Part shown: positions 1,361 to 35,966 of the stretch, piece after piece
How the letters are laid out: each line of letters begins with the position of its first letter
Numbering within the stretch: position 1 is the stretch's first letter
Source: an uncultured Acidimicrobiales bacterium
Lineage (GTDB): Bacteria > Actinomycetota > Acidimicrobiia > Acidimicrobiales > Hopanoidiivorantaceae
Assembly: GCA_958295755.1 (NCBI GenBank)
Contig: OY282367.1
Coordinates: 932,022-996,021, forward strand
DNA length: 64,000 nt
Reading direction: 5' to 3'
The notes under the pieces: model-generated
The model's input: only the letters and a program-made list of their open reading frames with translations
Told to the model about the DNA's origin: nothing
Databases searched by the model: none
Program-made: the position numbers and the translations under genes

Positions 1361-1386
1361 AGAAGATGCTTGACAACAACGGTGAG

Positions 1387-1441
1387 TGCTATAATATTTG
1401 GCAGTGTGACTTCATATGAAGGTTGCCAGCAACGCTTGATA
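1387..1441 (+). promoter_or_regulatory. Conserved promoter/leader of family copy 1: extended -10 (TGcTATAAT) plus the 12-bp palindrome CTTCATATGAAG
   Basis: tgcTATAAT at 1387-1395 and cttcatatgaag at 1410-1421. The same layout precedes copies 2-4. The second hairpin is less perfect here (cagcaacgcttgata). Confidence 0.5.
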
Positions 1442-1544
1442 CCGCAAAATACCAGGGAGGAAAAGTGATACTTCGTAAATCTAGAGAATCGTCAGGTGCG
1501 ATGCTAAGGAGTGTCACCTCTAGTACAGTGCCAGCTCTAGTACT

Positions 1545-2573
1545 ATGAAGCGGCTAGCTCAGGGCGGACATCAGGTGTCAGTTGGTGCTACTGATAAGTC
1601 AAGAAGTCTGAGTTCTGCGCCTCTATCTATAGGTGGCGGACAGGGCACCCCCCCCCGACTACGCCCTGAATCAAGCCACACCGAGAGAGGTATTACCCTT
1701 CAAACGCTTATCGTAACAGCCGTGCTGGTGCTGGTGGCTGTTGGGGCAGCATTGGTGCTGGTTGCTATCAACCGCAGCTCTAGTGATGATTTTGAAGAAG
1801 CCGGCAATATTGACATTGAAGGTAAGTGCCAGACTTGGGAAATTCACTTGGCGACGCTTGAAGCCGCAGGCCACGGCGGGCCAGAAGGCCACGGCGGGGT
1901 TTTCTCAAGCAACATAGGCTGCCTAGCCACCTGCTACTGGGAACTAACCAACTGGGCACTGAGTATCCCAAATGCTAAATGGGAACTTCATCCGGGTGCG
2001 TATTCTGTGAGGAACAGAAAAGTACCCCAAGGAACCACCAATCCGCATCCGCATGTCTCTAAGTTGTATTACCACGATGACAACAGAGCACCAGCTATCG
2101 ATCAAATACGATTAGGAGTAGTCAGCCTGAGAGTAGGCGCAGGAACACAAGAACCGTCTCGTGGTTTTGGTGCTGGTACTACTGATCATCTGCCTGGACA
2201 TACAAGTCCTGGAAACGCAGGTCCTGATAAAGATGGAAAATCGCATTATTTCCGCTTCAGACCTGGTGCAAAGGGAGCTATGGGAAATCCTGGGAGACCT
2301 CTAACACCGGCAATGATAAAGAAAGGTATAGCCACTATTGCTGAACCAAACTGGATGTCCCGTGGGAATAACCCTGGCAGTGGTGTGCTCGCTACAAACT
2401 ACCCCAAAACCAGCGGGGCAACCGATTCCGATTGGGAAAGATATCTTTGGGAAGACGAATCATGGGAAGTACGAGCCGACCCGGGTCGAGAAGTCTGCGA
2501 AATAGTAAATGTCGCCCACGACGATCTACTAGTCTGCTCCTCAGCCAAAGAGGAATGCGAATCAACTACTTAG
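1545..2573 (+). CDS. Pilin-like (class III signal-peptide-like) secreted Cys-rich variable protein, family copy 1; leader disrupted upstream
   Basis: 342-aa ORF, identical to copy 2 from SAPLSIGGGQGTPPRL to the end. It has the ERGITLQTLIVTAVLVLVAVGAALVLVAI motif, six Cys, and the conserved tail WEDESWEVRADPGREVCEIVNVAHDDLLVCSS. The family GTG start with RBS (GTG at 1465) ends at TGA 1546-1548, which overlaps ATG 1545 as ATGA. Confidence 0.7.
   Translation: MKRLAQGGHQVSVGATDKSRSLSSAPLSIGGGQGTPPRLRPESSHTERGITLQTLIVTAVLVLVAVGAALVLVAINRSSSDDFEEAGNIDIEGKCQTWEIHLATLEAAGHGGPEGHGGVFSSNIGCLATCYWELTNWALSIPNAKWELHPGAYSVRNRKVPQGTTNPHPHVSKLYYHDDNRAPAIDQIRLGVVSLRVGAGTQEPSRGFGAGTTDHLPGHTSPGNAGPDKDGKSHYFRFRPGAKGAMGNPGRPLTPAMIKKGIATIAEPNWMSRGNNPGSGVLATNYPKTSGATDSDWERYLWEDESWEVRADPGREVCEIVNVAHDDLLVCSSAKEECESTT
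1648..1656 (+). repeat. Poly-C tract (C9) in the leader codons of copy 1
   Basis: Counted by eye: gggca-CCCCCCCCC-gact; encodes TPPR. Confidence 0.9.
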
Positions 2574-2594
2574 CATTCACATCCCCTCCCTATT

Positions 2595-3053
2595 CTAGTC
2601 GGTGTCGCTAGCGGCGCGAAGTCCGAAGCCGATTTGCAATGTGTTATGGATGCCTCTAACTTCTCCTTTAATGCCTCTAACTTCTCCTTCTAGGTGCTTG
2701 ATATCGCCTGATAATCTTCCCTCTAGCTTTTCCAGTTTGACAGAGAACTCTCCCTCTAACTTTTTCAGATCGACTGACAACTGCTTGTGATCTTCGGCTA
2801 ATTTATCGAGTTTTGTGGTGGTGGCTTCTAAAGCCTTGTCGAATCTGGTGTTAGTGGCTTCTAAAGCTTGGCTGAAACTGGTGTTAGTGGCTTCTAAAGC
2901 TTGGCTGAAACTGGTGTTGGTGGCTTCTAAAGCTTGGCTGAAGCCGTTTAGCTTGACTTCATAGTTGTCTAGTAGTTTGCGGGTTAGGCAACCCAATACT
3001 CCCAGGAATGCCGCCAGTGCGATACTGCCGAGTGTGATGATTACTACTTCCAT
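2595..3053 (-). CDS. N-terminally membrane-anchored coiled-coil protein with 11-aa tandem repeats (partner gene, copy 1)
   Basis: 152 aa. The N-terminal hydrophobic helix MEVVIITLGSIALAAFLGVLGCL is followed by 4 x (F[SD][QK]ALEATNTx) and then heptad-like LEGE/VRGIKGEVRGI segments. It is convergent with copy 1, with 21 nt between the stop codons. No recognised family. Confidence 0.7.
   Translation of the reverse strand: MEVVIITLGSIALAAFLGVLGCLTRKLLDNYEVKLNGFSQALEATNTSFSQALEATNTSFSQALEATNTRFDKALEATTTKLDKLAEDHKQLSVDLKKLEGEFSVKLEKLEGRLSGDIKHLEGEVRGIKGEVRGIHNTLQIGFGLRAASDTD
2811..2942 (-). repeat. 33-bp in-frame tandem repeat, 4 units, inside the coiled-coil gene
   Basis: Units ggtgttagtggcttctaaagcttggctgaaact encode FSQALEATNTS-type 11-mers. 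Confidence 0.85.
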
Positions 3054-3224
3054 CGCTACTCCTTTCGGTGGGGGAATTTCGTGGTTTCTTTTACCTATTT
3101 GCTCATATCAGCTAGTGTAGCAAATGAAGGCTGCAATTCTGTTTAGCGAAATCTGCCGATGTAAATGTACTGCTGGAATAGCTGAAGTGATTCCAACTGA
3201 AAAGCACTAAATATAATGTGGTAG

Positions 3225-3279
3225 TGCTATAATTTATGGTGGTGTGACTTCATATGAAGGTTGCTATCAACGCTTGATA
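3225..3279 (+). promoter_or_regulatory. Conserved promoter/leader of copy 2: extended -10, 12-bp palindrome, short hairpin
   Basis: tgcTATAAT at 3225-3233, CTTCATATGAAG at 3248-3259, and tatcaa-cgc-ttgata at 3265-3279. RBS GGGAGG lies 4 nt before GTG 3303. Confidence 0.55.
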
Positions 3280-3302
3280 CCGCAAAATAACAGGGAGGAA
3301 AA

Positions 3303-4415
3303 GTGATACTTCGTAAATCCAGAGAATCGTCAGGTGCGATGCTAGGGAGTGCCAGCTCTAGTAGTATGAAGCGGCTACCTCAGGGAAGGCATCAGGCGTC
3401 AGCCGGCACTGCTGATAGCCCAGTTGATACTGCTCGCAAGCCAAGAAGTATGAGTTCTGCGCCTCTATCTATAGGTGGCGGACAGGGCACCCCCCCCCGA
3501 CTACGCCCTGAATCAAGCCACACCGAGAGAGGTATTACCCTTCAAACGCTTATCGTAACAGCCGTGCTGGTGCTGGTGGCTGTTGGGGCAGCATTGGTGC
3601 TGGTTGCTATCAACCGCAGCTCTAGTGATGATTTTGAAGAAGCCGGCAATATTGACATTGAAGGTAAGTGCCAGACTTGGGAAATTCACTTGGCGACGCT
3701 TGAAGCCGCAGGCCACGGCGGGCCAGAAGGCCACGGCGGGGTTTTCTCAAGCAACATAGGCTGCCTAGCCACCTGCTACTGGGAACTAACCAACTGGGCA
3801 CTGAGTATCCCAAATGCTAAATGGGAACTTCATCCGGGTGCGTATTCTGTGAGGAACAGAAAAGTACCCCAAGGAACCACCAATCCGCATCCGCATGTCT
3901 CTAAGTTGTATTACCACGATGACAACAGAGCACCAGCTATCGATCAAATACGATTAGGAGTAGTCAGCCTGAGAGTAGGCGCAGGAACACAAGAACCGTC
4001 TCGTGGTTTTGGTGCTGGTACTACTGATCATCTGCCTGGACATACAAGTCCTGGAAACGCAGGTCCTGATAAAGATGGAAAATCGCATTATTTCCGCTTC
4101 AGACCTGGTGCAAAGGGAGCTATGGGAAATCCTGGGAGACCTCTAACACCGGCAATGATAAAGAAAGGTATAGCCACTATTGCTGAACCAAACTGGATGT
4201 CCCGTGGGAATAACCCTGGCAGTGGTGTGCTCGCTACAAACTACCCCAAAACCAGCGGGGCAACCGATTCCGATTGGGAAAGATATCTTTGGGAAGACGA
4301 ATCATGGGAAGTACGAGCCGACCCGGGTCGAGAAGTCTGCGAAATAGTAAATGTCGCCCACGACGATCTACTAGTCTGCTCCTCAGCCAAAGAGGAATGC
4401 GAATCAACTACTTAG
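3303..4415 (+). CDS. Pilin-like secreted Cys-rich variable protein, family copy 2 (intact, GTG start)
   Basis: 370 aa. Strong RBS (cagGGAGGaaaaGTG), long leader with a C9 tract, ERGITLQTLIV plus a hydrophobic helix, and the conserved N- and C-terminal modules. Confidence 0.75.
   Translation: MILRKSRESSGAMLGSASSSSMKRLPQGRHQASAGTADSPVDTARKPRSMSSAPLSIGGGQGTPPRLRPESSHTERGITLQTLIVTAVLVLVAVGAALVLVAINRSSSDDFEEAGNIDIEGKCQTWEIHLATLEAAGHGGPEGHGGVFSSNIGCLATCYWELTNWALSIPNAKWELHPGAYSVRNRKVPQGTTNPHPHVSKLYYHDDNRAPAIDQIRLGVVSLRVGAGTQEPSRGFGAGTTDHLPGHTSPGNAGPDKDGKSHYFRFRPGAKGAMGNPGRPLTPAMIKKGIATIAEPNWMSRGNNPGSGVLATNYPKTSGATDSDWERYLWEDESWEVRADPGREVCEIVNVAHDDLLVCSSAKEECESTT
3490..3498 (+). repeat. Poly-C tract (C9) in the leader codons of copy 2
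   Basis: Counted by eye; in frame with the downstream body. Confidence 0.9.
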
Positions 4416-4436
4416 CATTCACATCCCCTCCCTATT

Positions 4437-4895
4437 CTAGTCGGTGTCGCTAGCGGCGCGAAGTCCGAAGCCGATTTGCAATGTGTTATGGATGCCTCTA
4501 ACTTCTCCTTTAATGCCTCTAACTTCTCCTTCTAGGTGCTTGATATCGCCTGATAATCTTCCCTCTAGCTTTTCCAGTTTGACAGAGAACTCTCCCTCTA
4601 ACTTTTTCAGATCGACTGACAACTGCTTGTGATCTTCGGCTAATTTATCGAGTTTTGTGGTGGTGGCTTCTAAAGCCTTGTCGAATCTGGTGTTAGTGGC
4701 TTCTAAAGCTTGGCTGAAACTGGTGTTAGTGGCTTCTAAAGCTTGGCTGAAACTGGTGTTGGTGGCTTCTAAAGCTTGGCTGAAGCCGTTTAGCTTGACT
4801 TCATAGTTGTCTAGTAGTTTGCGGGTTAGGCAACCCAATACTCCCAGGAATGCCGCCAGTGCGATACTGCCGAGTGTGATGATTACTACTTCCAT
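4437..4895 (-). CDS. Membrane-anchored 11-aa-repeat coiled-coil protein (partner gene, copy 2; identical to copy 1)
   Basis: The 152-aa translation is identical to 2595-3053. Confidence 0.7.
   Translation of the reverse strand: MEVVIITLGSIALAAFLGVLGCLTRKLLDNYEVKLNGFSQALEATNTSFSQALEATNTSFSQALEATNTRFDKALEATTTKLDKLAEDHKQLSVDLKKLEGEFSVKLEKLEGRLSGDIKHLEGEVRGIKGEVRGIHNTLQIGFGLRAASDTD
4653..4784 (-). repeat. 33-bp in-frame tandem repeat, 4 units
   Basis: Same as 2811-2942, shifted by 1842 nt. Confidence 0.85.
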
Positions 4896-5066
4896 CGCTA
4901 CTCCTTTCGGTGGGGGAATTTCGTGGTTTCTTTTACCTATTTGCTCATATCAGCTAGTGTAGCAAATGAAGGCTGCAATTCTGTTTAGCGAAATCTGCCG
5001 ATGTAAATGTACTGCTGGAATAGCTGAAGTGATTCCAACTGAAAAGCACTAAATATAATGTGGTAG

Positions 5067-5121
5067 TGCTATAATTTATGGTGGTGTGACTTCATATGAA
5101 GGTTGCTATCAACGCTTGATA
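5067..5121 (+). promoter_or_regulatory. Conserved promoter/leader of copy 3
   Basis: Identical to 3225-3279, shifted by 1842 nt. Confidence 0.55.
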
Positions 5122-5144
5122 CCGCAAAATAACAGGGAGGAAAA

Positions 5145-6226
5145 GTGATACTTCGTAAATCCAGAGAATCGTCAGGTGCGATGCTAGGGAGTGCCAGCTC
5201 TAGTAGTATGAAGCGGCTACCTCAGGGAAGGCATCAGGCGTCAGCCGGCACTGCTGATAGCCCAGTTGATACTGCTCGCAAGCCAAGAAGTATGAGTTCT
5301 GCGCCTCTATCTCTAGGTGGCGGACAGGGCACCCCCCCCCGACTGGATCAAGCCATAGATCAAGCCGCGAGTCAAGCAACACCGAGAGAGGTATTACACT
5401 TCAGACGCTTATCGTAACAGCCGTGCTGGTGCTGGTGGCTGTTGGGGCAGCATTGGTGCTGGTTGCTATCAACCGCAGCTCTAGTGATGATTTTGAAGAA
5501 GCCGGCAATATTGGCATTGAAGGTAAGTGCCAGACTTGGGAAATCCACTTGGCGACGCTTGAAGCAGCAGGGCACGGCGGGCCAGAAGGCCACGGCGGGG
5601 TTTTCTCAAGCAACATAGGCTGCCTAGCACCCTGCTACTGGGATATAACAGGTTATACGGATGCTGGCGCAATTAAAACTTTATGGCCGACGGCAATTCA
5701 TGTGCGAACTTATAATAATCCCCCTTCTTGGTATTCGCACACCTCAAGGTTGTATTACCACGATGACAACAGACCACCAACTATGGACCAATATAGATTA
5801 GGGGTTGTCTACTCTAGAGGCGGTGATAGGGATCACATGGCGAATAGGAACAAAAGTTGGATGAATCCAAATTATGAAGGGAGTGAGCCGTTTTTTCGTC
5901 GGACACTTCCTGGTGTTGGAACGCACCCGGGGACTCCTTTGAGTTCGGCATGGTTATTCCATCGACACCTTAACAAGAGGCTCCCTACTGTTACAAAACC
6001 CAATTGGATATCTTATGGTCCAGATCCTGGCAACGTGCTAGCTACAAATACAGGTTTAACTGCTACCTCCGATCATGATGAATTAGCAAAATACACCTGG
6101 GAAGACGAATACTGGGAAGTACGAGCAGATCCGGGCCGAGAAGTTTGTGAGATAGTAAATGTTGCCAATGACGATCTTCTCGTCTGCTCATCAGCCAAAG
6201 AAGAATGCGAACCAGCTGATACTTAG
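5145..6226 (+). pseudogene. Pilin-like variable protein, family copy 3, frameshifted at the poly-C tract (phase-OFF allele or pseudogene)
   Basis: The leader ORF 5145-5417 stops early. The family body (…LVLVAVGAALVLVAINRSSSDDFEEAGNI… to …VCSSAKEECEPADT) continues in another frame to 6226. Relative to copy 4 the only frame-relevant difference is C9 versus C10. Confidence 0.75.
5332..5340 (+). repeat. Poly-C tract (C9) in copy 3, one C short of the in-frame length
   Basis: Counted by eye: gggca-C9-gactggatcaagcc. Confidence 0.85.
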
Positions 6227-6279
6227 AAGCGAAGACGCTAACCCCTGAGCAACTACCGAAGTGGTGAAATCCTTCGGTT

Positions 6280-6804
6280 CTAGTCGGTGTCGCTAGTGGC
6301 GCGAAGTCCGAAGCCGATTTGCAATGTGCTATGAATGCCTCTAACTTCTCTTTTAATGCCTCTAACTTCTCCTTCTAGCTGCTTCAGATCGCCTGACAAC
6401 TGCTTGTGATCTTCGGCTAATTTGTCGAGTTTTATGTTGGTGGCTTCCAAAGCCTTGTCAAATCTGCTGCTGGTGGCCTCTAAAGCCTTGTCAAATCTGA
6501 TGTTGGTGGCCTCTAAAGCACTATCAAGCTTTGTGTTGGTGGCTTCCAAAGCCTTGTCAAATCTGATATTGGTGGCCTCTAAAGCCTTGTCGAATCTGAT
6601 GTTGGTGGCTTCCAAAGCCTTGTCGAATCTGATGTTGGTGGCTTCCAAAGCACTATCAAGCTTTGTGTTGGTGGCTTCTAAAGCTTGGCTGAAGCCGTTT
6701 AGCTTGACTTCATAGTTGTCTAGTAGCTGGCGGGTTAGCCAACCCAATACTCCCAGGAATGCCGCCAGTACGATACTGCCGAATGTGATGATTACTACTT
6801 CCAT
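6280..6804 (-). CDS. Membrane-anchored 11-aa-repeat coiled-coil protein (partner gene, copy 3, expanded repeat)
   Basis: 174 aa. Same N-terminal helix and C-terminal GEVRGIKREVRGIHSTLQIGFGLRATSDTD tail, but 8 repeat units instead of 4. Confidence 0.7.
   Translation of the reverse strand: MEVVIITFGSIVLAAFLGVLGWLTRQLLDNYEVKLNGFSQALEATNTKLDSALEATNIRFDKALEATNIRFDKALEATNIRFDKALEATNTKLDSALEATNIRFDKALEATSSRFDKALEATNIKLDKLAEDHKQLSGDLKQLEGEVRGIKREVRGIHSTLQIGFGLRATSDTD
6430..6693 (-). repeat. 33-bp in-frame tandem repeat, 8 units
   Basis: Encodes FSQALEATNTK/LDSALEATNIR/FDKALEATNIR… 11-mers. Confidence 0.85.
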
Positions 6805-6912
6805 CGCTACTCCTTTCAGTGGGGGCGGTTTCTTTTACCTATTTGCTCATATCAGCTAGTGTAGCAAATGAAGGCTGCAATTCTGTCTAACGAAATCTGC
6901 CGACAGCGACTA

Positions 6913-6988
6913 TCTGGGAAATACATTTATCGACGCTTGAAGCAGCAGGTCACGGCGGGCCAGAAGTCCATGGCGGTGTCTTCTGAAA
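6913..6988 (+). pseudogene. Orphan fragment of a pilin-like family gene (about 76 nt)
   Basis: ctgggaaatacatttatcgacgcttgaagcagcaggtcacggcgggccagaagtccatggcgg matches the family segment encoding WEIHLATLEAAGHGGPEGHGG. There is no start and no body. Confidence 0.6.
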
Positions 6989-6989
6989 C

Positions 6990-7218
6990 CTAGAGAGTCC
7001 CAGAATCTCGCTGCTTTGTCTCAGGGTTCAAAGGCAAAAATCTTCTGGCTTTAGTATTCCCCTCTGCAAGAATTTGGCCAGAATCCAGGAGCTTATTGAG
7101 AATTCGTCTGGTGGCAGGTATTGACTTGCCTCCTTGTGGGTAGCTCGCGCTTGAACTCCAGCTCTTCATGCTCAATGCGGCCGAAGTGCTCCCAAAATTC
7201 CTCTTCTGTGAATCGCAT
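6990..7218 (-). pseudogene. Decayed remnant of a regulator-like gene (AlbA_2-type N-terminus joined to a winged-helix-like C-terminus)
   Basis: The minus-strand ATG at 7218 gives MRFTEEEFWEHFGRIEHEELEFKRELP and then stops. A second frame (6990-7175) gives …GKSIPATRRILNKLLDSGQILAEGNTKARRFLPL. The family resemblance is by eye only. Confidence 0.3.
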
Positions 7219-7348
7219 CATAATTCTAAAGATTATACAATCTTTGGCGATTTTTAGCAATTTATGGCGATTTTTCTAAAGTTGTTAGAATTAACTGTTG
7301 GAATAGATGAAGTGATTCCACTGAATGGCACTAAATATAATGTGGTAG

Positions 7349-7403
7349 TGATATAATTTATGGTGGTGTGACTTCATATGAAGGTTACCATCAACGCTTG
7401 ATA
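7349..7403 (+). promoter_or_regulatory. Conserved promoter/leader of copy 4
   Basis: tgaTATAAT at 7349-7357, CTTCATATGAAG at 7372-7383, and atcaa-cgc-ttgat at 7390-7402. RBS GGGAGG precedes GTG 7427. Confidence 0.55.
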
Positions 7404-7426
7404 CCGCAAAATAACAGGGAGGAAAA

Positions 7427-8512
7427 GTGATACTTCGTAAATCTAGAGAATTGTCAGTTGCCAGTCTCAAGGGAGCCGGCTCTAAGCTGGCTCAGGGCGG
7501 ACATCAGGTGTTAGCCGGCACTGCTGATAGCCCAGTTGATACTGCTCGCAAGTCAAGAAGTATGAGTTCTGCGCCTCTATCTCTAAGTGGCGGACAGGAC
7601 ACCCCCCCCCCGACTGGATCAAGCCATAGATCAAGCCGCGAGTCAAGCAACAGCGAGAGAGGTATTACACTTCAGACGCTTATCGTAACAGCCGTGTTGG
7701 TGCTGGTGGCTGTTGGGGCAGCATTGGTGCTGGTTGCTATCAACCGCAGCTCTAGCGACGATTTTGAAGAAGCCGGCAATATTGGCATTGAAGGTAAGTG
7801 CCAGACTTGGGAAATCCACTTGGCGACGCTTGAAGCAGCAGGGCACGGCGGGCCAGAAGGCTACGGCGGGGTTTTCTCAAGCAACATAGGCTGCCTAGCA
7901 CCCTGCTACTGGGAACTAGGCAGCTGGAGTTCCACAAGTGCTAAATGGAGTTTTTATCCGGGTGCGTATTCTGTGAGGAATAGAGCGGGCAAGCATGTCT
8001 CTAAGTTGCATTACCACGATGACAACAGAGCACCAGCTATCAATCAAATACGATTAGGAGTAGTCAGCCTACGAGTATCAATAACAGACACAGAACCGTT
8101 TAATTATGGTGATACTGATCATCTCCCTGGAACTTCAGGTCCTGGAAGGGCAGGTCCTGATAAAGATGGAAAGTCGCATTATTTCCGCTTCAGATCTGGT
8201 TCTCCTACGCAGGGTGGAGCTAGGAGCTATTCTGGGAGACCTTTAACACAGAACATGATAGAAGCTGGGATAGACACTATTGCGGAACCTAACTGGATGT
8301 CCCGTGGGAATAACCCCGGCAGTGGTGTGCTCGCTACAAACTACCCCCAAACCAGCGGGGGAACCGATTGGGAAAGATATCTTTGGGAAGATGAATCATG
8401 GGAAGTACGAGCCGACCCGGGCCGAGAAGTCTGTGAAATAGTAAATGTCGCCCACGACGACCTTCTAGTCTGCTCTTCTGCTAAAGAAGAATGCGAACCA
8501 GCTGATACTTAG
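7427..8512 (+). CDS. Pilin-like secreted Cys-rich variable protein, family copy 4 (intact, C10 tract)
   Basis: 361 aa, with SERGITLQTLIV plus a hydrophobic helix, the conserved modules, and a distinct core. No coiled-coil partner lies downstream. Confidence 0.75.
   Translation: MILRKSRELSVASLKGAGSKLAQGGHQVLAGTADSPVDTARKSRSMSSAPLSLSGGQDTPPPTGSSHRSSRESSNSERGITLQTLIVTAVLVLVAVGAALVLVAINRSSSDDFEEAGNIGIEGKCQTWEIHLATLEAAGHGGPEGYGGVFSSNIGCLAPCYWELGSWSSTSAKWSFYPGAYSVRNRAGKHVSKLHYHDDNRAPAINQIRLGVVSLRVSITDTEPFNYGDTDHLPGTSGPGRAGPDKDGKSHYFRFRSGSPTQGGARSYSGRPLTQNMIEAGIDTIAEPNWMSRGNNPGSGVLATNYPQTSGGTDWERYLWEDESWEVRADPGREVCEIVNVAHDDLLVCSSAKEECEPADT
7602..7611 (+). repeat. Poly-C tract (C10) in the leader codons of copy 4
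   Basis: Counted by eye: ggaca-C10-gactggatcaagcc; encodes TPPP. Confidence 0.85.
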
Positions 8513-8702: not shown

Positions 8703-8939
8703 ATGGGGAAGCCGTCACTGATTGAAAGAATGCCGACAAAAGATCCTGGCGAAATTTGGACAGCTTGGGACGGTAAAGACTACACGATACACGCCGATGG
8801 AACAACACTCATTGACGAAGGCGGGAACTATCTATCCCCCTTCGATCTTCAACCACTGCCTAACGATACTGTTGATTTCGTCGCGCCGCTAGCCTGCGCC
8901 ACGCCCGAAGATGTGGAACGGGCAATAGCGATGTCCTAG
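8703..8939 (+). CDS. Hypothetical 78-aa protein (antitoxin position upstream of the PIN remnant)
   Basis: TATAAT at about 8670 and a strong RBS (aaAGGAGGagtacaATG). No recognisable domain. Confidence 0.5.
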   Translation: MGKPSLIERMPTKDPGEIWTAWDGKDYTIHADGTTLIDEGGNYLSPFDLQPLPNDTVDFVAPLACATPEDVERAIAMS

Positions 8940-8941
8940 AA

Positions 8942-9151
8942 GTGGAAGTGGTACTTGTAGACACCTCTGCTGTTTCGGCTTTGCTTTCTGTACGTAGCAG
9001 AAAGCGCCCGTTACAGAATGCAGTATTGAGAGCAATAGCCGGCAGAAAAACTGCGGTTTCGCCTGTGATAGAGGCGGAATATAGTTCTCTTACCTATTGT
9101 AGTCTTGTAGGGGGCGGACAGTTAGGGGGTGTTCTTGCCATTCACGAATAG
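8942..9151 (+). pseudogene. Truncated VapC-like PIN-domain ORF
   Basis: It starts 2 nt after the upstream stop. The N-terminus VEVVLVDTSAVSALLS…SPVIEAEY looks like a PIN domain with its first Asp. It is only 69 aa, and the last ~20 codons are antisense to the carB 3' end. Confidence 0.4.
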
Positions 9152-12100
9152 CTTCTATGGCAGCTCTAGTTGCTGCGAGGGTGGTGAGAGTGGGGATGCC
9201 CCTGCGGGAAGTCAGTCGGCGAAGATCGGCAGTACTTTCATCTCGGCTGTCTGAAGAGGCTGCTATGACAGCTAGTGAAACTGCGCTGTTCTGCAGGAGA
9301 TCTGCTGGAGCAACTGCCTTGTCAGCTTGCGTGCCAGATGCCATATCAACTGCCTTGATTTCAAAGCCCAAATTCTCAAAGCCCGTAGCTATCTCTTCGG
9401 CTACTTCAGGCGTTTGACCGGGCAAGCACAAAATCACACTGCCTTCTAGGGGCAAGTGCGAGCCTGCAGCCATCTGGCTTTTCATAAAAGCTCTGCCAAA
9501 GCTCACGTCTATCCCCATCACTTCACCTGTAGAGCGCATCTCGGGGCCGAGCAAAGTATCAGTTTCGGGGAAGCGATTGAAAGGCAACACAGCTTCCTTT
9601 ACGGCAACATGGCCTGGAATATGATTTGGAATATGATCCGCAACACCCTCAGGCCAAAAAGTTTTTGACACCAACATTGCCTCGTCTCGAAGCTCCGTAA
9701 GGCTAGCACCGAGCATCACTCTGGCTGCTATTTTTGCCAGCGGCACACCAGTAGCTTTAGCCACAAATGGCACTGTTCTGGAAGCTCTAGGGTTTGCCTC
9801 TATCACATATACTTGATTCTCACTAACCACATATTGCACATTCAGAGGGCCGCGCACATCCAAAGCGGCTGCGATTCTAGCTGTGTAGTCCGACATAGTT
9901 TTCAAGCTCTCCTCGCTAAGAGACATCGGCGGAAGCACACAGGCACTGTCGCCAGAATGCACGCCAGCTGCTTCAACATGTTCCATGATCCCCCCGATAA
10001 GCACCTCGCCGTCTTTATCACGAACAGCATCCACATCAACCTCAACGGCATTTTCCATAAAGCGATCCAACAGCACAGGCCGCTCAGCCGACAACCCCCC
10101 TTCCTTGCCCAGAGATCGCTCTATCTCATCCATAGCCTCATCTAAGGTTTCTTGATCGTATGCCAGCACCATAGCCCTACCGCCCAACACATACGACGGG
10201 CGCACCAATAATGGAAAGCCGATTTCTTCTGCCACTTCAAAAGCTTCGGTTTTAGTGCTGGCTGTTCCGCCGGGCGGCAACAAGATGTCTTCGCGTTGGC
10301 ACAATTCAGCCCACCGCTGTCTGTCTTCTGCGATGTCTATAGCGTCGGGGCTGGTGCCCGCGATGAGTTCTTGAGGCAAATCGTGGGCCAGCTTCAGCGG
10401 AGTCTGCCCGCCGAGACCGATAATCACAGCTTCTACTCCGGGTGTGCCAGTGGCTTGTGCTACCCGCTCTTCGGCTGCTATAACAGCGAGCACATCTTCA
10501 GCTGTGAGGGGCTCGAAAAAGAGCCTGTCGCTGGTGTCGTAATCGGTAGAGACAGTTTCCGGATTGCAATTGAACATAACGGTGGCATAGCCAGCTTCTC
10601 GCAGAGCCATGCTGGCATGGACGCAGCAATAGTCAAACTCAATGCCTTGCCCGATGCGGTTCGGCCCAGCCCCCAAAATAATCACCTTGGGAAGCTCAGA
10701 AGGTAGAACTTCATCGGTATCTTCACAGGCGGAATAGTGATAAGGAGTGATAGCTTCAAACTCAGCCCCGCAAGTATCTACCGTTTTATAGACAACCTCT
10801 ACGCCGCTGCCTTTGCGAGTGGTAGACACATCTTCGGCTGAGACACCCAAGAGCCAGCCGAGCTGGGTATCGGAAAAGCCGAGTTGTTTGGCACGTCGCC
10901 AGTCAGCTGGGGTGAGTTGAGAGATGTCTGTGACCGAAGCAAGCCTCTGTCTCTCTTCCACGATGGCTAGCATTTGGTCGATAAACCACGGGTCAATTTG
11001 GGTTGCCTCATGGACTTCTCCCACGCTTGCTCCTTGGCGTAAAGCAGTTTCCATCTGAAAGATACGATCTGGAGTGGGCTCAGACATTGCCTCAAGTAGC
11101 TCAGCTATTGACATTGCCTCCCAAGCAGTTTCCCCCACATCGCAGTTGAGACCGAACCTGCCTTGTTCAAGCGAGCGAACTGCCTTTTGCAGAGATTCTG
11201 GGAATGTCCTGCCGAGTGCCATCACCTCCCCCACCGATTGCATGGCAGCCCCTAGCACTGGCGGTGTAGATGGAAACTTCTCAAATGACCAGCGAGGGAT
11301 TTTGGTCACCACATAATCAATAGTGGGTTCAAAACAAGCTGGAGTTGCTTGGGTGATGTCGTTTGGTATTTCGTCTAATGTGTATCCCACAGCTAAGCGA
11401 GCGGCGATCTTAGCTATCGGAAAGCCAGTAGCTTTAGATGCCAAAGCAGACGATCGGCTCACTCTGGGATTCATCTCAATCACCACCTGCCGCCCGTCTT
11501 GCGGGTTCACAGCGAACTGCACATTTGACCCGCCCGTTTCTACGCCAACTCTTCGCATGCATGCGAATGCAGCGTCTCGCATAGCTTGATATTCAATATC
11601 TGAAAGCGTCTGAACTGGAGCAACGGTGATGCTGTCGCCGGTGTGGACGCCCATCGGGTCAAAGTTTTCAATGGAACACACCACAACACAGTTGTCGGCT
11701 TTGTCGCGCATCACTTCAAGCTCAAACTCTTTCCAGCCGGCTATGGACTCTTCTATGAGCACTTCGTTTATTGGGCTGGCGGCGAGACCTTCGGCTAGGG
11801 CGGCATCAAACTCATGCTGGCTTTCAGCGATGGTCGCACCTTTGCCACCCAGAATGAAGGCAGGGCGGATAATCACAGGCAACCCGAGCTCAGCCACCAC
11901 AGCAAGCCCCTCTTCCATACTGCGAGCTATCCCAGAAGTCGGCACAGAAAGCCCGATGCCGATCATGGCTTCTTTGAACTGCTCTCTGTCTTCGGCTGTG
12001 GCGATGGCTTCCATGCTGGCACCGATCAGCTCTACGCTGTAAGTCTCAAGAGTGCCAGAATCCGACAAGGCTTTAGCCAAGTTGAGTGCTGTTTGCCCGC

Positions 12101-12377: not shown

Positions 12378-14180
12378 CTAGTGAAAGCTCTCTAGTAATT
12401 CGGCGAACTCACCGAAAAGATAGCGGCTATCGTGGGGGCCGGGGCCGGCTTCGGGGTGGTATTGCACACCAAAAGCTGGGGCGTCGGTTGCTCGCAGACC
12501 TTCTACGGTGCCGTCGTTGAGGTTGAGGTGAGTGATTTTGAAAGATGGCGAGGTGAGGCTCGGAGAGGCGACCGAGAAGTTGTGATTTTGGGCAGTGATT
12601 TCAATCTCACCTGTGGCGCAGTTTTGAACGGGGTGGTTGCCGCCGTGATGTCCGAAAGGCAGTTTTATGATTTCTGCCCCTAGAGCTTGCGCCAAGATTT
12701 GATGCCCCAAGCAGATGCCAAATATTGGGACTGCACCTAGCAGTTCTTCTACTGTGGCTGAAGCGTAAAGTGCTGTTGCTGGGTCACCGGGGCCGTTGGA
12801 GAGAAAAACCCCTTGAGGTTCTCTAGCTAAAATGTCGGCAGCTGTTGTGGAAGCTGGCACTACTTCAACTTCGGCTATAGCGGTGAGCTGGCGTAAAATC
12901 GTGTGCTTGATGCCGAGATCTAAGGCGACTACTTTCCATCTTGGGTCAGCAGATGCTGATGTAAGGTTGGTGCTTTTATTGGTGAAGCTGGGTTTTTTAT
13001 CGGCTAAGCCTAGCTTTTCATCTGCGAACCAAGGCTCTTGGCTCGTTACTTCTGCCACTAGATCTACCCCTGATGTGCCAGGTTCTTGCTGGGCTACTTT
13101 TAGCAACATATCCATTGCGTCTGTGCTGTCAGACGGGCCGAAAGCACCTACCATCGCACCTTCTTCGCGGATGTGGCGCGTCAGGCGGCGGGTGTCTACT
13201 CTACTCAGAACAGCAATACCAGCTGCTTGCAAGCTGGCTTCCAAGCTATGTTCTGAACGCCAGCTGCTAGGGATTCGTGCTAGGTCGCGCACTATCACAC
13301 CACGGCAGGCTGGCGACCAACTTTCGCTGTCTTGAGCAGATGTGCCGTAGTTGCCGATGTGCGGATATGTAAAGGCGATGATTTGGCCAGCATAGGAAGG
13401 GTCAGTAATGATCTCTTGATAGCCGGTAAGTGCAGTATTGAACACGACTTCGCCGGCAACGAAGCTTCTGCCCCTAGCCGCAGCAGCGACACTTCTAGCA
13501 CTTGTCTCATCATCTCTTGAGAGTTCGGCTGATCTTGAGAGTTCCGCTGGAAGTTCCGCTCCGCGCAGCTCGCCGTGAAAGACTTCACCGTCGCGCAAAA
13601 CCAGCATTCCGGGGCGTATCGCTCCTCTTTGCCCACTCACTTTTACTGCCTGTGACGCAGTGTTTTCTGCGACCTGGTCTTCTGCCACTTGGTTTTCTGC
13701 TACCTGGTTTTCTGCTACTTGCGGCGCATCACTGGCAACACTTGAAGCAGTCAATATGCCAGAGAGCACACCATTTACAAAGCGAGAAGAATCTTCTGTT
13801 GAATACTCTTTGGCGAGTTCCACAGCTTCGTCAATAGCCACCGCCACAGGTATATCCTCGCAAAAACACATCTCATATACCGCCAGCCGCAAAACAGCCA
13901 AATCAACTTGCGCCAGCCTTTCAGTTCGCCATTGGTCACTATGAGCACCGATGAGGGCGTCTATCTCACTGTGATGCTTAACTACACCTTCAAGCTGTGC
14001 CACCACGAAATCCGTGGGTGGAACATCTTGCCCCTCCAACACTTCAAGGGGAGACACTTGCTTTATGTCGGCTTCATATAAAAGAGCGATGGTGCGTTCT
14101 CTGCCACGATGGCGAGTTTTGCTGGGGAGTAAGCCGTCGCTCACTTCTGTGCCCCAAATCTTTCCACGCTTGCGCCCCAA
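12378..14180 (-). CDS. carA: Single ORF encoding NusB (N-terminal ~145 aa) fused in frame to carbamoyl-phosphate synthase small subunit CarA (C-terminal ~410 aa)
   Basis: NusB motifs: [28 protein letters not shown]. Then comes the linker [20 protein letters not shown], followed by CarA motifs: [36 protein letters not shown], and the GATase [10 protein letters not shown]. There is no in-frame stop between the parts. An internal ATG at 13607 could start a separate CarA. Confidence 0.85.
13665..13724 (-). repeat. 15-bp tandem repeat, 4 units, encoding the (QVAEN)n linker
   Basis: Plus-strand units: ttctgcgacctggtc, ttctgccacttggtt, ttctgctacctggtt, ttctgctacttgcgg. Confidence 0.8.
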
Positions 14181-23694: not shown

Positions 23695-24717
23695 ATGACA
23701 ACTGTGTTGGTAACTTTTGCTTGGGAGAGAGTGCGGGAGCTGGCTGAGCGGCACTCTGATGTGGAATTTTTAGAGGTGAAAGCGTCTGGGCAGCTGGAAC
23801 GGAGTATGGGAGGAGACGGAGTCAAGAGGGACGGAGTGGGGGGCGAAACCAGCAACACAGCAACCCACCTAGAGAGCATGAAGGCAACTACCCCAGAAGG
23901 CGAAGTTTTGCTTACTTCACCACAGGGAGTTGACGGATTAGCTGAGATATTAGAGGCAGGGGTGCGATGGGTGCATGTGGTGGGGACGGGAGTAGATCGC
24001 TTCCCGATGGAGTTGCTAGGCGAACAACTACTAACTTGCTCGCGAGGTGCCAGTGCTGTGCCAATTTCAGAATGGGCGATGGCGCACATTTTGGCAGAGG
24101 CGAAACACCTGCCTGAGGCATGGGTCACAGAAAAACCAGAACGATGGTTCTTCCCTCAAACACCAGCGGCGACACTAGTAGGGCAACGGCTCGGGATTAT
24201 CGGGCTAGGTGCTATTGCCACAGAAACAGCCAAGCGAGCAATGGCTTTTGGAATCGAAGTAATGGCTTTGCGGCGCACCGACAAGCCTGCTCCCTTGCCC
24301 GGCATTCAAGTGACGACATCACCAGAAGAGTTGGTAGCCGAAGCAGATTGCTTGCTCGTGGCTTGCGCCTTGACTGATTCAACACGAGATTTCGTAGACA
24401 GCAAGATGTTGGCAGCGTGTAAGCCCGGCTTACATCTACTGAATGTGGCTCGAGGGGAAATCATCAACGAAGACGCTTTGCGACAAGCTCTGGATTCTGG
24501 CATCGTAGAGCGCGCATCATTAGATACAGCAAAAAGCGAACCTTTGCCTGAAGACCACTGGATGTTTAGCCATCCTAAAGTTCGCCTCACTCCGCATATC
24601 TCATGGAGCGAACCGGGTGCCTTGGAACGTCTGCTAGAAGATTTCAGTCATAACTTGAGCCGCTGGGTAAGCGGCGAGCCGTTAGAGGGTGTGGTAGACC
24701 GCGAAGCTGGCTACTGA
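23695..24717 (+). CDS. D-isomer-specific 2-hydroxyacid dehydrogenase family protein
   Basis: NAD fold GIIGLGAIATETAKRA, then ARGEIINEDAL and TPHISW. Confidence 0.8.
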   Translation: MTTVLVTFAWERVRELAERHSDVEFLEVKASGQLERSMGGDGVKRDGVGGETSNTATHLESMKATTPEGEVLLTSPQGVDGLAEILEAGVRWVHVVGTGVDRFPMELLGEQLLTCSRGASAVPISEWAMAHILAEAKHLPEAWVTEKPERWFFPQTPAATLVGQRLGIIGLGAIATETAKRAMAFGIEVMALRRTDKPAPLPGIQVTTSPEELVAEADCLLVACALTDSTRDFVDSKMLAACKPGLHLLNVARGEIINEDALRQALDSGIVERASLDTAKSEPLPEDHWMFSHPKVRLTPHISWSEPGALERLLEDFSHNLSRWVSGEPLEGVVDREAGY

Positions 24718-25379
24718 ACATCTGGCGTTTGTAATCGCTTCAAGTGTTCGGCGAATAAATCATTCATGCCGCTATCTACTTTACTTTCAGCTAAATAGCG
24801 TTTCAGAAGTTCTCCGTATTTGTTCCAATGTTCAGACATAATAGTCACCGCTTGGGTATGCATAGCCCGCGGGGTTGACGGCAACGGTGCTTCTAATGGT
24901 ATGTTTCCGACACCTGCGACTCCGTAAAAATTGATTTCCACATGTCCTTCTTGGAAATGCTCATCTAAGGCTGTTCGTTTTCCATAAACATACCTGATGG
25001 GGAGAGACTTACTAGGTATCCAAGACAACCTGTAGTTGCCGTCCGGGTCTGACAGCGCATCTAATGGCAAGTGTTCTTCGCAGATGACTTGCTTGCTAGG
25101 AACTGTTACATACTCAGCTAGGTGCTCTTCCAAGGTTTTGTCATCTATCCAAGGGTTGGAAATTTCCAGCGGCGGCAAAGACGCTATTTCAAGATAAGGC
25201 ACTAAGTCTTGACCGTATATGGGGGCTCTATCGTATGTGGAATATTCACGGTGCGGAGGAGCCAGTCGCACCCAAACTTCTAGCTTGTCTCTAGCAGGGC
25301 GCAACGCAAGCCAGTATCCGCGAACTTGAAAGTCTTTGAGGGTAGCTATTACCACCTGTATGTATGTTGTGCTTGACAT
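24711..25379 (-). CDS. Hypothetical protein, 222 aa, no recognised domain (downstream of fic)
   Basis: Clean ORF. A duplicated RBS-like motif (ttagaaggggaaa x2) lies just upstream. The 3' end overlaps the convergent dehydrogenase by 7 nt. Confidence 0.5.
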   Translation of the reverse strand: MSSTTYIQVVIATLKDFQVRGYWLALRPARDKLEVWVRLAPPHREYSTYDRAPIYGQDLVPYLEIASLPPLEISNPWIDDKTLEEHLAEYVTVPSKQVICEEHLPLDALSDPDGNYRLSWIPSKSLPIRYVYGKRTALDEHFQEGHVEINFYGVAGVGNIPLEAPLPSTPRAMHTQAVTIMSEHWNKYGELLKRYLAESKVDSGMNDLFAEHLKRLQTPDVQ

Positions 25380-25418: not shown

Positions 25419-26747
25419 CTAACTCGTGTCAGCCTGTTGCGGGATACGCGAAGAGTGGTTCGCCCCGGGGCGCACCTCTGTGATATCTCCGCTGGAATCT
25501 ATATAAAAGGCAGAACCGCCAGTTTGTTCAGGTTGTACGGCAGACCCAAACATAGTTTTGGCATAGTCTTCTATATTCCGCTCAAGTTTTTCAGCAAGCC
25601 GATATATATCTGGCGGCTCCCAAGTCTGTTCGCTACGCTTCTTGGAAGGATTCCAACGCTTTCTGCCAATCTGAACAATATCATCAGCTTCAAGCCTGTC
25701 AATGATCCGCCTCGCAGTAATCTCAGACACGTCCAACCTGTTTTGCATTTCATATCGGGTAAACACAGGAAACTCAGAGAGGTGAACAACAGCTTCGTAC
25801 AGATTCCTGCGTTTGCCATGAGACGCACCCAACCTCCCAAACCACTCTGACATCAATGCGTCACGCTCTGCGTAAAATTCTGCCATGCCCGCCAGAGCCG
25901 CTTCGACAGCCACAGCCTGAATCTGAACAGCCGGGTTGATGTCTCCGGCGCGATAAGAGTCAAACGATGCGAAATACTGAGATTTGAGAGCCAGCAAAGC
26001 CGAAGACACAGGTAGCGGCTTAGCACCGGACAGCAGTAGCATTCTTTGAATAGCTACCCTTCCCACACGGCCGTTGCCGTCTAAAAACGGGTGGATGCTC
26101 TCAAACTGAGCGTGCGACAAAGCCAACCGCTCCACTATCCCAATATCAGAACGAGAAGAAAATTCCACCCAGTCGTTTATCAGCCCGCTTACCGCTTCCG
26201 GCAAGGGTGCTACATAGTGTGCATCAAAAATCCCGCCTCGGCTGCCTATCCAGACTCGATCATCAGATTTGGAGCGGAAACGCCCAGCATAGTCCTCATC
26301 TCGCATGATTATCTCGTGATCTGCCAAAATCGTCTGCCGTGTTAAAGGCTGCGAGGGATGTTCCATAACCCGCAACAGACATTCCAAATTTTTTGCTGTT
26401 TCAAGTGCCCCGGGTTTAGCGTCCACTCCGGCGGCGGCACGGCATAAGTTCTGAAATTTAGTGCGGTTTCCTTCTATCCGAGAAGAGTTGATGGCTTCGG
26501 TTCTTAAGAGCAGTCCTTCCATGAATCCGCCCGTGCCACGGCGATGCTGTTCTAGTTTTTCTCTGGCACTCAGTGCCGCTTCCTTGATTTCTGCCGACAG
26601 AGGCACAGACGCTATGTCGGCTATGAGTGGCGGGACAGCGAATTCCACATTGCCGTATCTACTTTGCCCGATGTCTGTTAGCTCATTGACTCTGCGCACA
26701 ATTGCGCCAAACGGAGGGAGAGTTAATGATGTGCTCATCAAAACCAT
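25419..26747 (-). CDS. fic: Fic family protein (class II type with an N-terminal inhibitory helix motif)
   Basis: Fic motif HPFLDGNGRVGR. The N-terminal segment SSRIEGN fits the inhibitory pattern [ST]xxxE[GN]. A winged-helix-like C-terminal region reads ITARRIIDRLEADDIV. Confidence 0.88.
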   Translation of the reverse strand: MVLMSTSLTLPPFGAIVRRVNELTDIGQSRYGNVEFAVPPLIADIASVPLSAEIKEAALSAREKLEQHRRGTGGFMEGLLLRTEAINSSRIEGNRTKFQNLCRAAAGVDAKPGALETAKNLECLLRVMEHPSQPLTRQTILADHEIIMRDEDYAGRFRSKSDDRVWIGSRGGIFDAHYVAPLPEAVSGLINDWVEFSSRSDIGIVERLALSHAQFESIHPFLDGNGRVGRVAIQRMLLLSGAKPLPVSSALLALKSQYFASFDSYRAGDINPAVQIQAVAVEAALAGMAEFYAERDALMSEWFGRLGASHGKRRNLYEAVVHLSEFPVFTRYEMQNRLDVSEITARRIIDRLEADDIVQIGRKRWNPSKKRSEQTWEPPDIYRLAEKLERNIEDYAKTMFGSAVQPEQTGGSAFYIDSSGDITEVRPGANHSSRIPQQADTS

Positions 26748-35107: not shown

Positions 35108-35966
35108 GTCAAATACCAGAACAGAACAAACTACCGTCAAGCAGATCGGAGTAACCTTCGCGGCTGAGGTGGACGGGGTGGATTTTGCGAACCTTACAGA
35201 TGAAGTCACTGACCACATATATGATCTGCTGTTGGAATATGGCGTGCTGTTTTTCAGAGGCGCAAATATCACAGCAGAACAGCAAGAAATCTTGGCGCGC
35301 TCCTTCGGCGAACCTGCTGTATTTCCTATATCGCGCATCACCCACCCTGAACGCGAAGTGCCGTTCTTGAGTGAAATCACAGACACTCCTGATAGCCCGC
35401 CAGACGCCGACGGTTGGCACACCGACATCACTTGGATCCCGAACCCGCCCAAGATTGGCATTTTGGCGGCTTTAGATATTCCAGAATCAGGTGGAGACAC
35501 CTTGTGGGCTGATTTGTATGCCGCTTATGATAATCTTTCGCCTGTGATGCAGGAGTTCTTTGAGAAACTCACCTTGAAACATGTCATATCTGATGTGATT
35601 CTTAACGCAGTAGTGCGCCTCGGCAAACCTGAAGCTGTGTCTTACATCAAAGAGAAGTTCCCGCCAGTTTCGCATCCTCTTATCCGCACACACCCCGACA
35701 CCGGCCGCAAGGCACTATTCGTGGCTGGACATTTCATGCAAAGTGTGGAAGGGATGAACGACAAAGAGTCGGAGATGCTGATTAACTGGCTTAGTGAATA
35801 TATAAACAACCCGAACTTTCATGTGCGCTGGCGGTGGCAAGAAGGCGATCTGGCTATCTGGGACGAGCGATGCACTAACCACCGGGCACTTTCTAACCAC
35901 TATCCCCAATATCGCCGCATGAGGCGGTGCACGATTGAAGGCGATGTCCCCTTCTTCAGTGCTTGA
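35091..35966 (+). CDS. TauD/TfdA-family Fe(II)/2-oxoglutarate dioxygenase, paralog 2
   Basis: WHTDITW, GGDTLWAD and CTNHRA. The start was moved to ATG 35091, which follows AAGGAAGGAG. It overlaps the ald end by 17 nt. Confidence 0.82.
   Translation: MAVIAESNTRTEQTTVKQIGVTFAAEVDGVDFANLTDEVTDHIYDLLLEYGVLFFRGANITAEQQEILARSFGEPAVFPISRITHPEREVPFLSEITDTPDSPPDADGWHTDITWIPNPPKIGILAALDIPESGGDTLWADLYAAYDNLSPVMQEFFEKLTLKHVISDVILNAVVRLGKPEAVSYIKEKFPPVSHPLIRTHPDTGRKALFVAGHFMQSVEGMNDKESEMLINWLSEYINNPNFHVRWRWQEGDLAIWDERCTNHRALSNHYPQYRRMRRCTIEGDVPFFSA

Follow-up and report, generated by a model that had tools for sequence, protein, structure and literature searches.

A family of predicted surface proteins with length-variable homopolymer runs in the leader-coding region in an uncultured Acidimicrobiales bacterium

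Contingency loci, in which repeat slippage switches surface genes, are a hallmark of host-adapted pathogens. In Neisseria, the genes for PilC (a poly-G run) and Opa (CTCTT repeats) carry the repeat in the region coding for the signal peptide. Other surface multigene families recombine, such as Neisseria pilE/pilS, Mycoplasma vlp/vsa and Anaplasma msp2. Here, we analysed a window of 64,000 nucleotides (nt) from an uncultured Acidimicrobiales bacterium (GenBank assembly GCA_958295755.1, contig OY282367.1, positions 932,022 to 996,021 of the forward strand), which holds five paralogous genes with homopolymer runs in their leaders. We consider it rather probable that they encode phase-variable, recombining surface proteins with a class III-like (prepilin-type) signal, the phase-variation part of this interpretation being more secure than the cleavage part. 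Slipped-strand phase variation is typically recognised by a run whose length determines the reading frame (PMC2831843, PMC5084427), and homopolymer phase variation has a precedent within Actinomycetota in Mycobacterium tuberculosis (PMC10334774). Literature searches found no report of contingency loci in sponge symbionts.

Five paralogous open reading frames (ORFs) were verified with the ORF list and an alignment of the window, all of them where the initial annotation had placed a five-member family. The alignment bore out the three invariant parts described there (N-terminal helix, 3-Cys module or module 2, and tail) and the six conserved Cys residues. Copies 1–4 form a head-to-tail array with a repeat unit of approximately 1842 bp. 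The coding sequences of copies 1 and 2 had 0 differences over 296 codons from the ERG motif to the stop; since their mature proteins are identical, the five copies represent four distinct variants. GTG start codons with an upstream ribosome-binding site were located at 1465, 3303, 5145 and 7427 in array copies 1–4. In copy 1, the frame from GTG 1465 was disrupted by a 17-nt tandem duplication (1510–1543) and a 21-nt deletion. The ORF annotated initially for this copy (1545–2573) is therefore open but begins at an internal start only, the start with a ribosome-binding site being GTG 1465. The family genes and their elements are the following (ON, start codon in frame with the body; OFF, out of frame; the slash in motifs stands after the Gly at position −1):

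1465–2573, plus strand: family copy 1; frame from GTG 1465 broken, open frame from ATG 1545 to 2573
1648–1656, plus strand: C9 run in the leader of copy 1, with the TLQ codons 38 nt downstream
1683–1769, plus strand: signal module ERG/ITLQTLIVTAVLVLVAVGAALVLVAI of copy 1, from the alignment and the N-terminus logo
3525–3611, 5384–5470 and 7655–7741, plus strand: the same signal module in copies 2, 3 and 4
3303–4415, plus strand: family copy 2; ON, GTG in frame, C9, 38-nt spacer
3490–3498, plus strand: C9 run in the leader of copy 2
5145–6226, plus strand: family copy 3; OFF, leader ORF 5145–5417 out of frame with the open body 5384–6226
5332–5340, plus strand: C9 run of copy 3; spacer of 55 nt as in copy 4, which has C10
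7427–8512, plus strand: family copy 4; ON, C10, 55-nt spacer
7602–7611, plus strand: C10 run in the leader of copy 4
26897–27874, minus strand: family copy 5, dispersed; ON, signal module at 27689–27775
27795–27803, minus strand: leader run of copy 5, G9 as read on the coding strand and C9 as read on the plus strand, encoding GGG

All five copies carried a run in the leader-coding region (C9 or C10 in the array, G9 in copy 5 as read on its coding strand). The runs were located 31–55 nt before the TLQ codons and 44–187 nt after the start with the ribosome-binding site, and no start codon lay between run and signal. Five of the six runs of at least 9 bases in the window were in family leaders, and 7 C9 matches were observed versus 0.27 expected. 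The frameshift noted initially in copy 3 lay exactly at the run, which had been overlooked: copy 3 has C9 there and copy 4 an in-frame C10, both with a spacer of 55 nt. Adding one C to the run of copy 3 would restore the frame, and its body is open over 280 codons.

The family is new and specific to one lineage. Only 176 family clusters were returned when 1.84 billion cluster representatives were searched exhaustively with a profile, and none of the 102 matches at E ≤ 0.001 in a search of 5.8 billion proteins was named or Pfam-bearing. Among 185,579 representative genomes, the conserved peptide occurred in two records only, both from Ca. Hopanoidivoransaceae (Acidimicrobiia). One of them is a metagenome-assembled genome (MAG) named for the sponge genus Cymbastela (H. 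cymbastelae), with 27 distinct family gene starts in 15 loci. Literature searches for the motif and for Hopanoidivorans were both without match. Looking beyond the window for further members and a prepilin peptidase, as had been suggested at the outset, yielded at least four more members (P0009, P0012, P0015, P0100) and the peptidase P0312 (see below) on the same contig of 2,292,181 bp. In a sister contig (L026), whose flanking amidohydrolase gene is 97.7% identical to that of the window, six family copies surround the same carB locus in an arrangement unlike that in the window, which indicates that copy number and order change quickly.

Alleles in both states were also found in these relatives. 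The sister contig contained ON copies with C9 and a 38-nt spacer or C10 and a 37-nt spacer, and OFF copies with C11 and a 37-nt spacer as well as one with G10. A run of at least 8 bases was present within 200 nt upstream in 23 of 43 family 5' ends from related loci. The H. cymbastelae MAG has a subfamily with a transmembrane (TM) helix in the leader and runs of G7–G10; 9 of its 12 TM1-leader copies were out of frame at or beside the run, with bodies still full-length. Likewise, the bodies of OFF copies in loci L016–L020 spanned 183–208 codons, as in ON copies. Another subfamily carries a G9–G10 run within module 2, and one copy was shifted there. The same locus was recovered in both states from two assemblies: C10, ON and 336 amino acids (aa) in L027 (MEGAHIT), versus C11, OFF and called from an internal start in L026, with 98.8% identity over 1.6 kb. 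A second locus was OFF with C9 in L028 and ON with C10 in L002. Clusters at 90% identity mixed full-length and N-truncated calls of one gene; in one such cluster, 7 of 13 members were N-truncated calls on separate short contigs. Judged from these sequences, the run is conserved and repeatedly recruited, and it varies naturally in length, which determines the reading frame. A conserved run of variable length that sets the frame indicates slipped-strand phase variation.

As in Neisseria PilC and Opa, a simple repeat between start codon and mature protein sets the frame. In both cases the repeat lies in a leader that is discarded (presumably so in the present family), paralogs would switch independently, and the products are, or are predicted to be, host-facing surface proteins. 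The systems differ in phylum (Actinomycetota here, Pseudomonadota in Neisseria), and neither the protein family nor the fold is related. The present signal is class III-like, that of Neisseria of Sec type, and switching was deduced here from allele comparisons, not measured. The glpK, frd and other genes of the M. tuberculosis complex, in the same phylum, also undergo reversible frameshifts in coding C/G runs (PMC10334774, 10.1101/717272, PMC12263978). The genes affected there are single-copy, metabolic or regulatory, and their runs measure approximately 7 bases, whereas the present runs comprise 9–11 bases at a fixed leader site in a large paralogous surface family in which recombination acts as well.

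The ratio of nonsynonymous (dN) to synonymous (dS) divergence differed between regions of the gene: it was 0.02 in the helix, 0.03–0.18 in module 2 and the tail, and 0.36–1.05 in the core. These values agree with the surface-directed, diversifying family proposed initially, the surface direction being predicted from sequence, and with purifying selection on the hydrophobic module. Over the 29 codons from ERG to AI, copy 5 differed from the array copies by 13–15 synonymous changes and 1 nonsynonymous change, in line with the earlier remark that the dispersed copy encodes the same peptide with different codons. With dS of 0.8–1.07 and dN of 0.017 in this segment, the identity of the helix peptide reflects selection, not only gene conversion. 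Between copies 3 and 4, dS was 0.04–0.06 in leader, helix and module 2, and 1.6 in the core. In addition, P0397 and P0398, from different genomes, have one mature sequence in common but a leader of the G type in one case and of the C type in the other. This mosaic dS and the exchanged leader indicate that recombination among copies reshuffles leaders and cores. The family thereby resembles pilE/pilS, vlp/vsa and msp2, which likewise have conserved ends, a hypervariable core, tandem and dispersed copies, mosaic synonymous divergence and copy numbers that differ between close relatives. Unlike in those systems, no silent-cassette/expression-site layout was evident, and each family copy comes with a promoter-like region, a ribosome-binding site and a switch of its own.

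The consensus of 145 distinct N-termini was [DTS][EQ][R.]G/[IFY]TLQTLI[VI]TAVLVL.AV. In the logo, Gly−1 occurred in 144 of the 145, Gln+4 in all of them and Thr+5 in 143 (Ser+5 in 2), so the Thr that the initial annotation saw in place of Glu is general. Positions +1 to +26 read [IFY]TLQTLIVTAVLVLxAVxAGxxxxAI, with approximately 21 hydrophobic residues after the Gly. In a class III signal, a hydrophilic leader with Gly as its last residue precedes a stretch of about 21 hydrophobic residues; bacteria customarily have Glu5, which is nevertheless dispensable for cleavage (PMC4471445). The family leaders were hydrophilic and basic, ended in Gly−1 and were 6–133 aa long (median 32); 38 of the 145 had an extra TM-like stretch. 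Short basic leaders were found in distant members (MEERG/ITLQ, MTNQKG/YTLQ, MKYRRRMPRGESG/FTLQ). The same module also fronts unrelated ectodomains, namely four RCC1 propellers, several unknown families and one protein with a weak, slightly sub-threshold Calx-beta match. In an hhalign comparison with a hand-entered set of eight canonical pilin N-termini, Gly−1 aligned on Gly−1 with a probability of 54% (P = 1.3e-4), versus 1.2% for the reversed control. A homolog search with the 43-aa signal alone gave nothing usable. By its residues, the module has every class III signal feature except Glu5, and it looks like a lineage-wide sorting signal, [DE][RQ]G/[IFY]TLQTLIVTAV, of the class III (prepilin) type without this residue. 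The class III-like N-terminus proposed initially is thus retained, with Gly−1 and the hydrophobic helix, a tentative pilin alignment in register and a peptidase on the contig.

This peptidase belongs to family A24. A motif scan of related loci detected a 167-aa ORF with a GxGDxR motif in L002 (9238–9741), which scored 41 bits with PF01478 (Peptidase_A24) at a cut-off of 26.5. Its gene is divergent from a family gene, 176 nt apart, and the order peptidase, family gene, leucine-rich-repeat (LRR) gene recurs in the independent scaffold L028. In related contigs, orthologs with 57–93% identity were present as a single gene between an amidohydrolase (Amidohydro_2) gene and nadA, and in no case within a pilus operon. 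The contig of the window itself encodes an A24 peptidase of 167 aa (P0312) that has kept both catalytic Asp motifs; the stand-alone enzymes of the lineage measure 160–167 aa. The presence of the peptidase strengthens the pilin-like reading of the N-terminus. A scan of 476 kb of loci for the A24 GxGDxK motif returned the L002 peptidase only, and in the window, tblastn with this protein was negative and no pilus gene was seen, as initially reported. A conserved peptidase-family operon was considered and rejected: the two genes adjoin only in the L002/L028 arrangement, and elsewhere the peptidase gene lies between Amidohydro_2 and NadA genes.

The LRR gene beside the peptidase and family genes (L002 11115–13649, L028 2182–3465) codes for an 844-aa protein with a Sec-type signal. 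It carries a C9 run 27 nt past its ATG, and a C5/C6 difference splits the L028 gene. Going by these sequences, other surface genes of the lineage may be switchable too.

The six Cys residues were invariant in the five-copy alignment (C125, C156, C160, C336, C349 and C356 in copy 4 numbering). For a protein of Actinomycetota, this number of conserved Cys would fit an extracytoplasmic location. The N-terminal helix, the 3-Cys module and the tail were conserved, and the core between them was divergent. The 3-Cys module comprises 60 aa (C..E...LEA.G.GGP.G.GG..S..GC...CYW), is duplicated in distant members and occurs eight times in one relative of 1089 aa. An AlphaFold model from the family alignment, with a predicted local distance difference test score (pLDDT) of 83 and a predicted template modelling score (pTM) of 0.79, consisted of a long N-terminal helix (residues 5–41), a dip in pLDDT at NRSSS and a mixed alpha/beta domain; an ectodomain-only model reached a pTM of 0.82. 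Foldseek searches with both models gave no match in the PDB at E < 1, no pilin among the weaker ones and none in BFVD. Neither model showed the pilin fold (alpha1C on an antiparallel sheet) in the comparison with the PDB. The globular part, which the initial annotation did not recognise, has no pilin-like neighbour in its predicted fold. Pfam, NCBIfam and PDB-sequence searches of the family gave nothing above threshold either, and the earlier suggestion of an undescribed family holds. Being without structural neighbour, the modelled ectodomain is a candidate new fold.

In several respects the family resembles type IV pilins and other class III proteins: a hydrophilic leader with an invariant Gly precedes a hydrophobic helix of at least 21 residues (PMC4471445), and an A24 peptidase is encoded in the genome. 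One signal on unrelated extracellular domains is also known from modular pilins and from the sugar-binding proteins of the Sulfolobus 'bindosome' (PMC4471445). It differs from type IV pilins in having Thr+5 instead of Glu and an invariant Gln+4, in its many leaders of up to 130 aa, some with a TM helix, in leaving the N_methyl, TadE and TIGR02532 models unmatched, and in a globular part that is not recognisably pilin. Neither the window nor approximately 0.5 Mb of related loci yielded an assembly ATPase or platform protein.

We propose the following explanation. In Acidimicrobiia of the Ca. Hopanoidivoransaceae kind, the products would be disulfide-bonded surface proteins with an extracytoplasmic location. 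Their leader, basic, cytoplasmic and variable in length, would end in the invariant Gly, and the near-invariant helix that follows ([IFY]TLQTLIVTAVLVL...) would insert N-in/C-out. The lineage's stand-alone A24 peptidase would cleave after the Gly, and the conserved helix would then anchor the ectodomain or serve its assembly. Slippage in the C/G run of 7–11 bases between start codon and signal would shift the body into or out of frame, and the expression of each copy would be set stochastically. Recombination would swap leaders and variable cores, with the helix, the 3-Cys module and the tail under purifying selection. The outcome would be a surface differing between individual cells, with phage or host (sponge) recognition as the probable selective force. 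The sequences themselves show the family, its motif, the runs, ON and OFF alleles of different run length, the mosaic structure and the peptidase, whereas cleavage, surface display, the switching rate and the selective agent are the parts of this explanation that we infer.

A more far-reaching version is possible, and we put it forward tentatively: sponge-associated Acidimicrobiia might possess an unrecognised branch of the prepilin pathway, with a stand-alone TadV-like A24 peptidase, dozens of Glu5-less cargoes toggled independently by their runs, and a recombined coat. The cargoes would be the 6-Cys family, the RCC1 propellers and others with the G/xTLQTLIVTAV signal; their display or polymerisation on the monoderm surface would depend on the helix, and the stochastic, combinatorial coat would evade sponge phagocytosis or phage. 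If the proposed explanation is true, an uncultured Acidimicrobiia symbiont with a reduced genome (approximately 2.3 Mb) would have a concrete, testable way to vary its surface under pressure from host or phage. G/[IFY]TLQTLIVTAV would be a new, easily searchable sorting signal that marks an entire group of extracellular proteins in the lineage, and the bacterial class III signal concept would extend to a form without Glu5, paired with an orphan prepilin peptidase. The ectodomain, with three conserved disulfide-forming Cys pairs, would then be a candidate new fold.

Several points weigh against this explanation. Phase variation was read here from allele comparisons, not from reads. Long-read assemblies can miscall run lengths, and any single ON or OFF state may therefore be an error. 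Expression and surface location are predictions from the DNA. Position +5 is Thr instead of Glu, and leaders of 76–78 aa exceed the 6–26 aa typical of prepilins (PMC4471445). PF07963, PF07811, PF13400 and the TIGR02532/NCBIfam prepilin models had no match in the window copies at E ≤ 1, and the TadE/TadG-like label given initially was not supported. Among 66 members, the N_methyl, TadE and Tad models gave none at E ≤ 0.1; PilX_N only reached E = 0.06, which is sub-threshold. No PilB/TadA-type ATPase (T2SSE Walker A) was detected in the window or in 476 kb of related loci, and platform genes were likewise absent from the window and from approximately 0.5 Mb of related loci. The link to the peptidase is circumstantial, since it adjoins a family gene in one arrangement only and otherwise lies in housekeeping synteny. 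Because Glu5, the hidden Markov model (HMM) signatures and the fold all fail, membership in the type IV pilins or TadE/G is not established.

That the runs have no switching role is very unlikely. They would then be plain Pro/Gly coding, with OFF copies being decaying pseudogenes or long-read homopolymer miscalls. Several source contigs do come from long-read assemblies, copy 1 was broken by the 17-nt duplication and not by run length, and some OFF/ON pairs differ by an indel beside the run, not inside it. However, the runs were strongly enriched and nearly confined to family genes, and they consist of C or G at positions that differ among subfamilies, an alternation that suggests repeated recruitment. 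OFF copies retained full-length open bodies whose conserved modules are under purifying selection. OFF forms were also found in short, probably short-read contigs (L028 and seven contigs of 1.8–8.6 kb of the P0020 cluster), and A7 and A8 runs in ordinary genes of the window left the frames unbroken.

Two further alternatives concern the N-terminus, and phase variation and diversification would still apply under the first of them. The proteins may be ordinary bitopic (type II, N-in/C-out) membrane proteins with the helix as an uncleaved signal-anchor, conserved for packing on a membrane protein or for oligomerising, and the A24 peptidase would serve another substrate, e.g. an Flp pilin. The long leaders with an extra TM helix in 38 of 145, the missing Glu5 and pilin HMM matches, the mostly housekeeping synteny of the peptidase and the absence of a pilin fold match in Foldseek all speak for it, as does the fall in pLDDT at NRSSS, which separates the helix from the globular part in place of an alpha1C packed on a sheet. 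We nevertheless regard this as rather unlikely: a plain anchor needs no invariant Gly−1, Gln+4 and Thr+5 across proteins that are approximately 30% identical or have unrelated ectodomains, and the short basic leaders of distant members end in G, exactly like prepilins. A frame-shifting run encoding PPP or GGG is most easily tolerated in a leader that is removed, and the profile can be aligned in register with pilin N-termini (hand-entered reference set). Still less probable, in our view, is that the proteins are genuine subunits of a type IV filament (major or modular minor pilins) with variable tip or shaft domains, polymerised by a machine of the Tad or type IV pilus kind encoded elsewhere. 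The helix is as conserved as pilin alpha1N, through which filaments assemble (PMC4471445), the genome encodes a prepilin peptidase, and one signal fronts many cargo domains, as in modular pilins. Sponge-associated relatives in the order UBA5794, to which this lineage may or may not belong, are also reported to keep some Tad genes (PMC12008989). Bacterial pilins mutated in Glu5 cannot homopolymerise (PMC4471445), however, and Thr is found here at +5 in 143 of 145 N-termini. Moreover, no ATPase, platform protein or Flp gene adjoined any of approximately 50 family genes, and mature parts of approximately 260–290 aa with a non-pilin fold are unusual for major subunits.

Array units 1–3 contain two genes each, the family gene on the plus strand and a convergent partner gene on the minus strand. 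The initial description of the array was accurate for the family copies and missed both the leader runs and these co-amplified coiled-coil genes. The remaining features of the array are:

2595–3053, minus strand: partner gene 1, 152 aa, convergent with copy 1; N-terminal TM helix and coiled coil
4437–4895, minus strand: partner gene 2, identical to partner 1
6280–6804, minus strand: partner gene 3, 174 aa; 33-nt repeat region at 6431–6684
6915–6987, plus strand: family-gene remnant (module 2), 86% identity to the copies, with stop codons inside

The partner proteins contain 33-nt (11-aa) repeats, with 3.7 copies in partners 1 and 2 and 7.6 in partner 3. Partner genes were also present in L026 (2004–2429, 3864–4352 and 11068–11757), and the product sizes overall were 152, 174 and up to 229 aa. 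Two of the L026 genes have a C10/C11 run 14 nt before the ATG; the window counterpart is CCCCCACC. The coiled-coil protein was rejected as a conserved partner of the family, as homologs were found in the window and L026 only, and not beside the family genes of distant genomes. A perfect 12-nt palindrome, CTTCATATGAAG, is located in the 5' untranslated region (UTR) of all four array copies (1408–1424, 3246–3262, 5088–5104 and 7370–7386), where it follows a TGcTATAAT-like −10 element and precedes the ribosome-binding site; the region upstream of copy 5 lacks it. It is possibly an operator or an RNA hairpin. The sixth run of the window (41805–41813; C9 on the plus strand, G9 on the minus strand) is intergenic, between the etfA stop (41838) and a molybdopterin oxidoreductase gene (39434–41728, minus strand), 77 nt upstream of the ATG of the latter. 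By its position, it could be a promoter or UTR switch.

The remaining sizeable ORFs of the window belong to housekeeping and metabolic families (carAB, efp, aro genes, alaS, trp genes, etfAB and others); one ORF of 222 aa (24711–25379) was without match, and Rfam and tRNA scans of the window were empty. An origin of the array from a prophage or mobile element is unsupported, the flanks being carAB, efp and aro genes. At the array border, a 78-aa ORF (8703–8939, plus strand) differs at 1 of 78 residues from an L026 ORF that precedes an intact PIN-domain gene, and it is followed by a short piece (8942–9151, plus strand) running into carB. By its likeness to L026, the stretch 8703–9151 looks like a toxin-antitoxin remnant. 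A Fic/DOC-domain protein of 442 aa (25419–26747, minus strand) directly adjoins the dispersed copy 5, and defence-type genes (AlbA_2/HATPase_c_4, AAA_15/21, N6 methylase) adjoin family genes in L001 and L022; the family thus tends to occupy variable islands. Just downstream of the family gene in L002, an 18-aa piece (10958–11011) has 72% identity to the N-terminus of the A24 peptidase, and ECH_1 fragments similarly flank family genes in L021. The L002 sequence hints that this family gene was inserted with duplication of flanking sequence.

Two metabolic genes of the window have unusual structures. The small subunit of carbamoyl-phosphate synthase (12378–14180, minus strand) has an N-terminal NusB domain (PF01029 + CPSase_sm_chain + GATase), an unusual fusion of NusB and carA that is also kept in the sister contig (L026 17046–18782). 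PurH is encoded by two overlapping ORFs on the plus strand, 35935–36567 (MGS and the start of AICARFT) and 36555–37661 (the remainder of AICARFT). The same split was called in a distant relative (L021 2761–4545), and it is therefore probably real and not an error.

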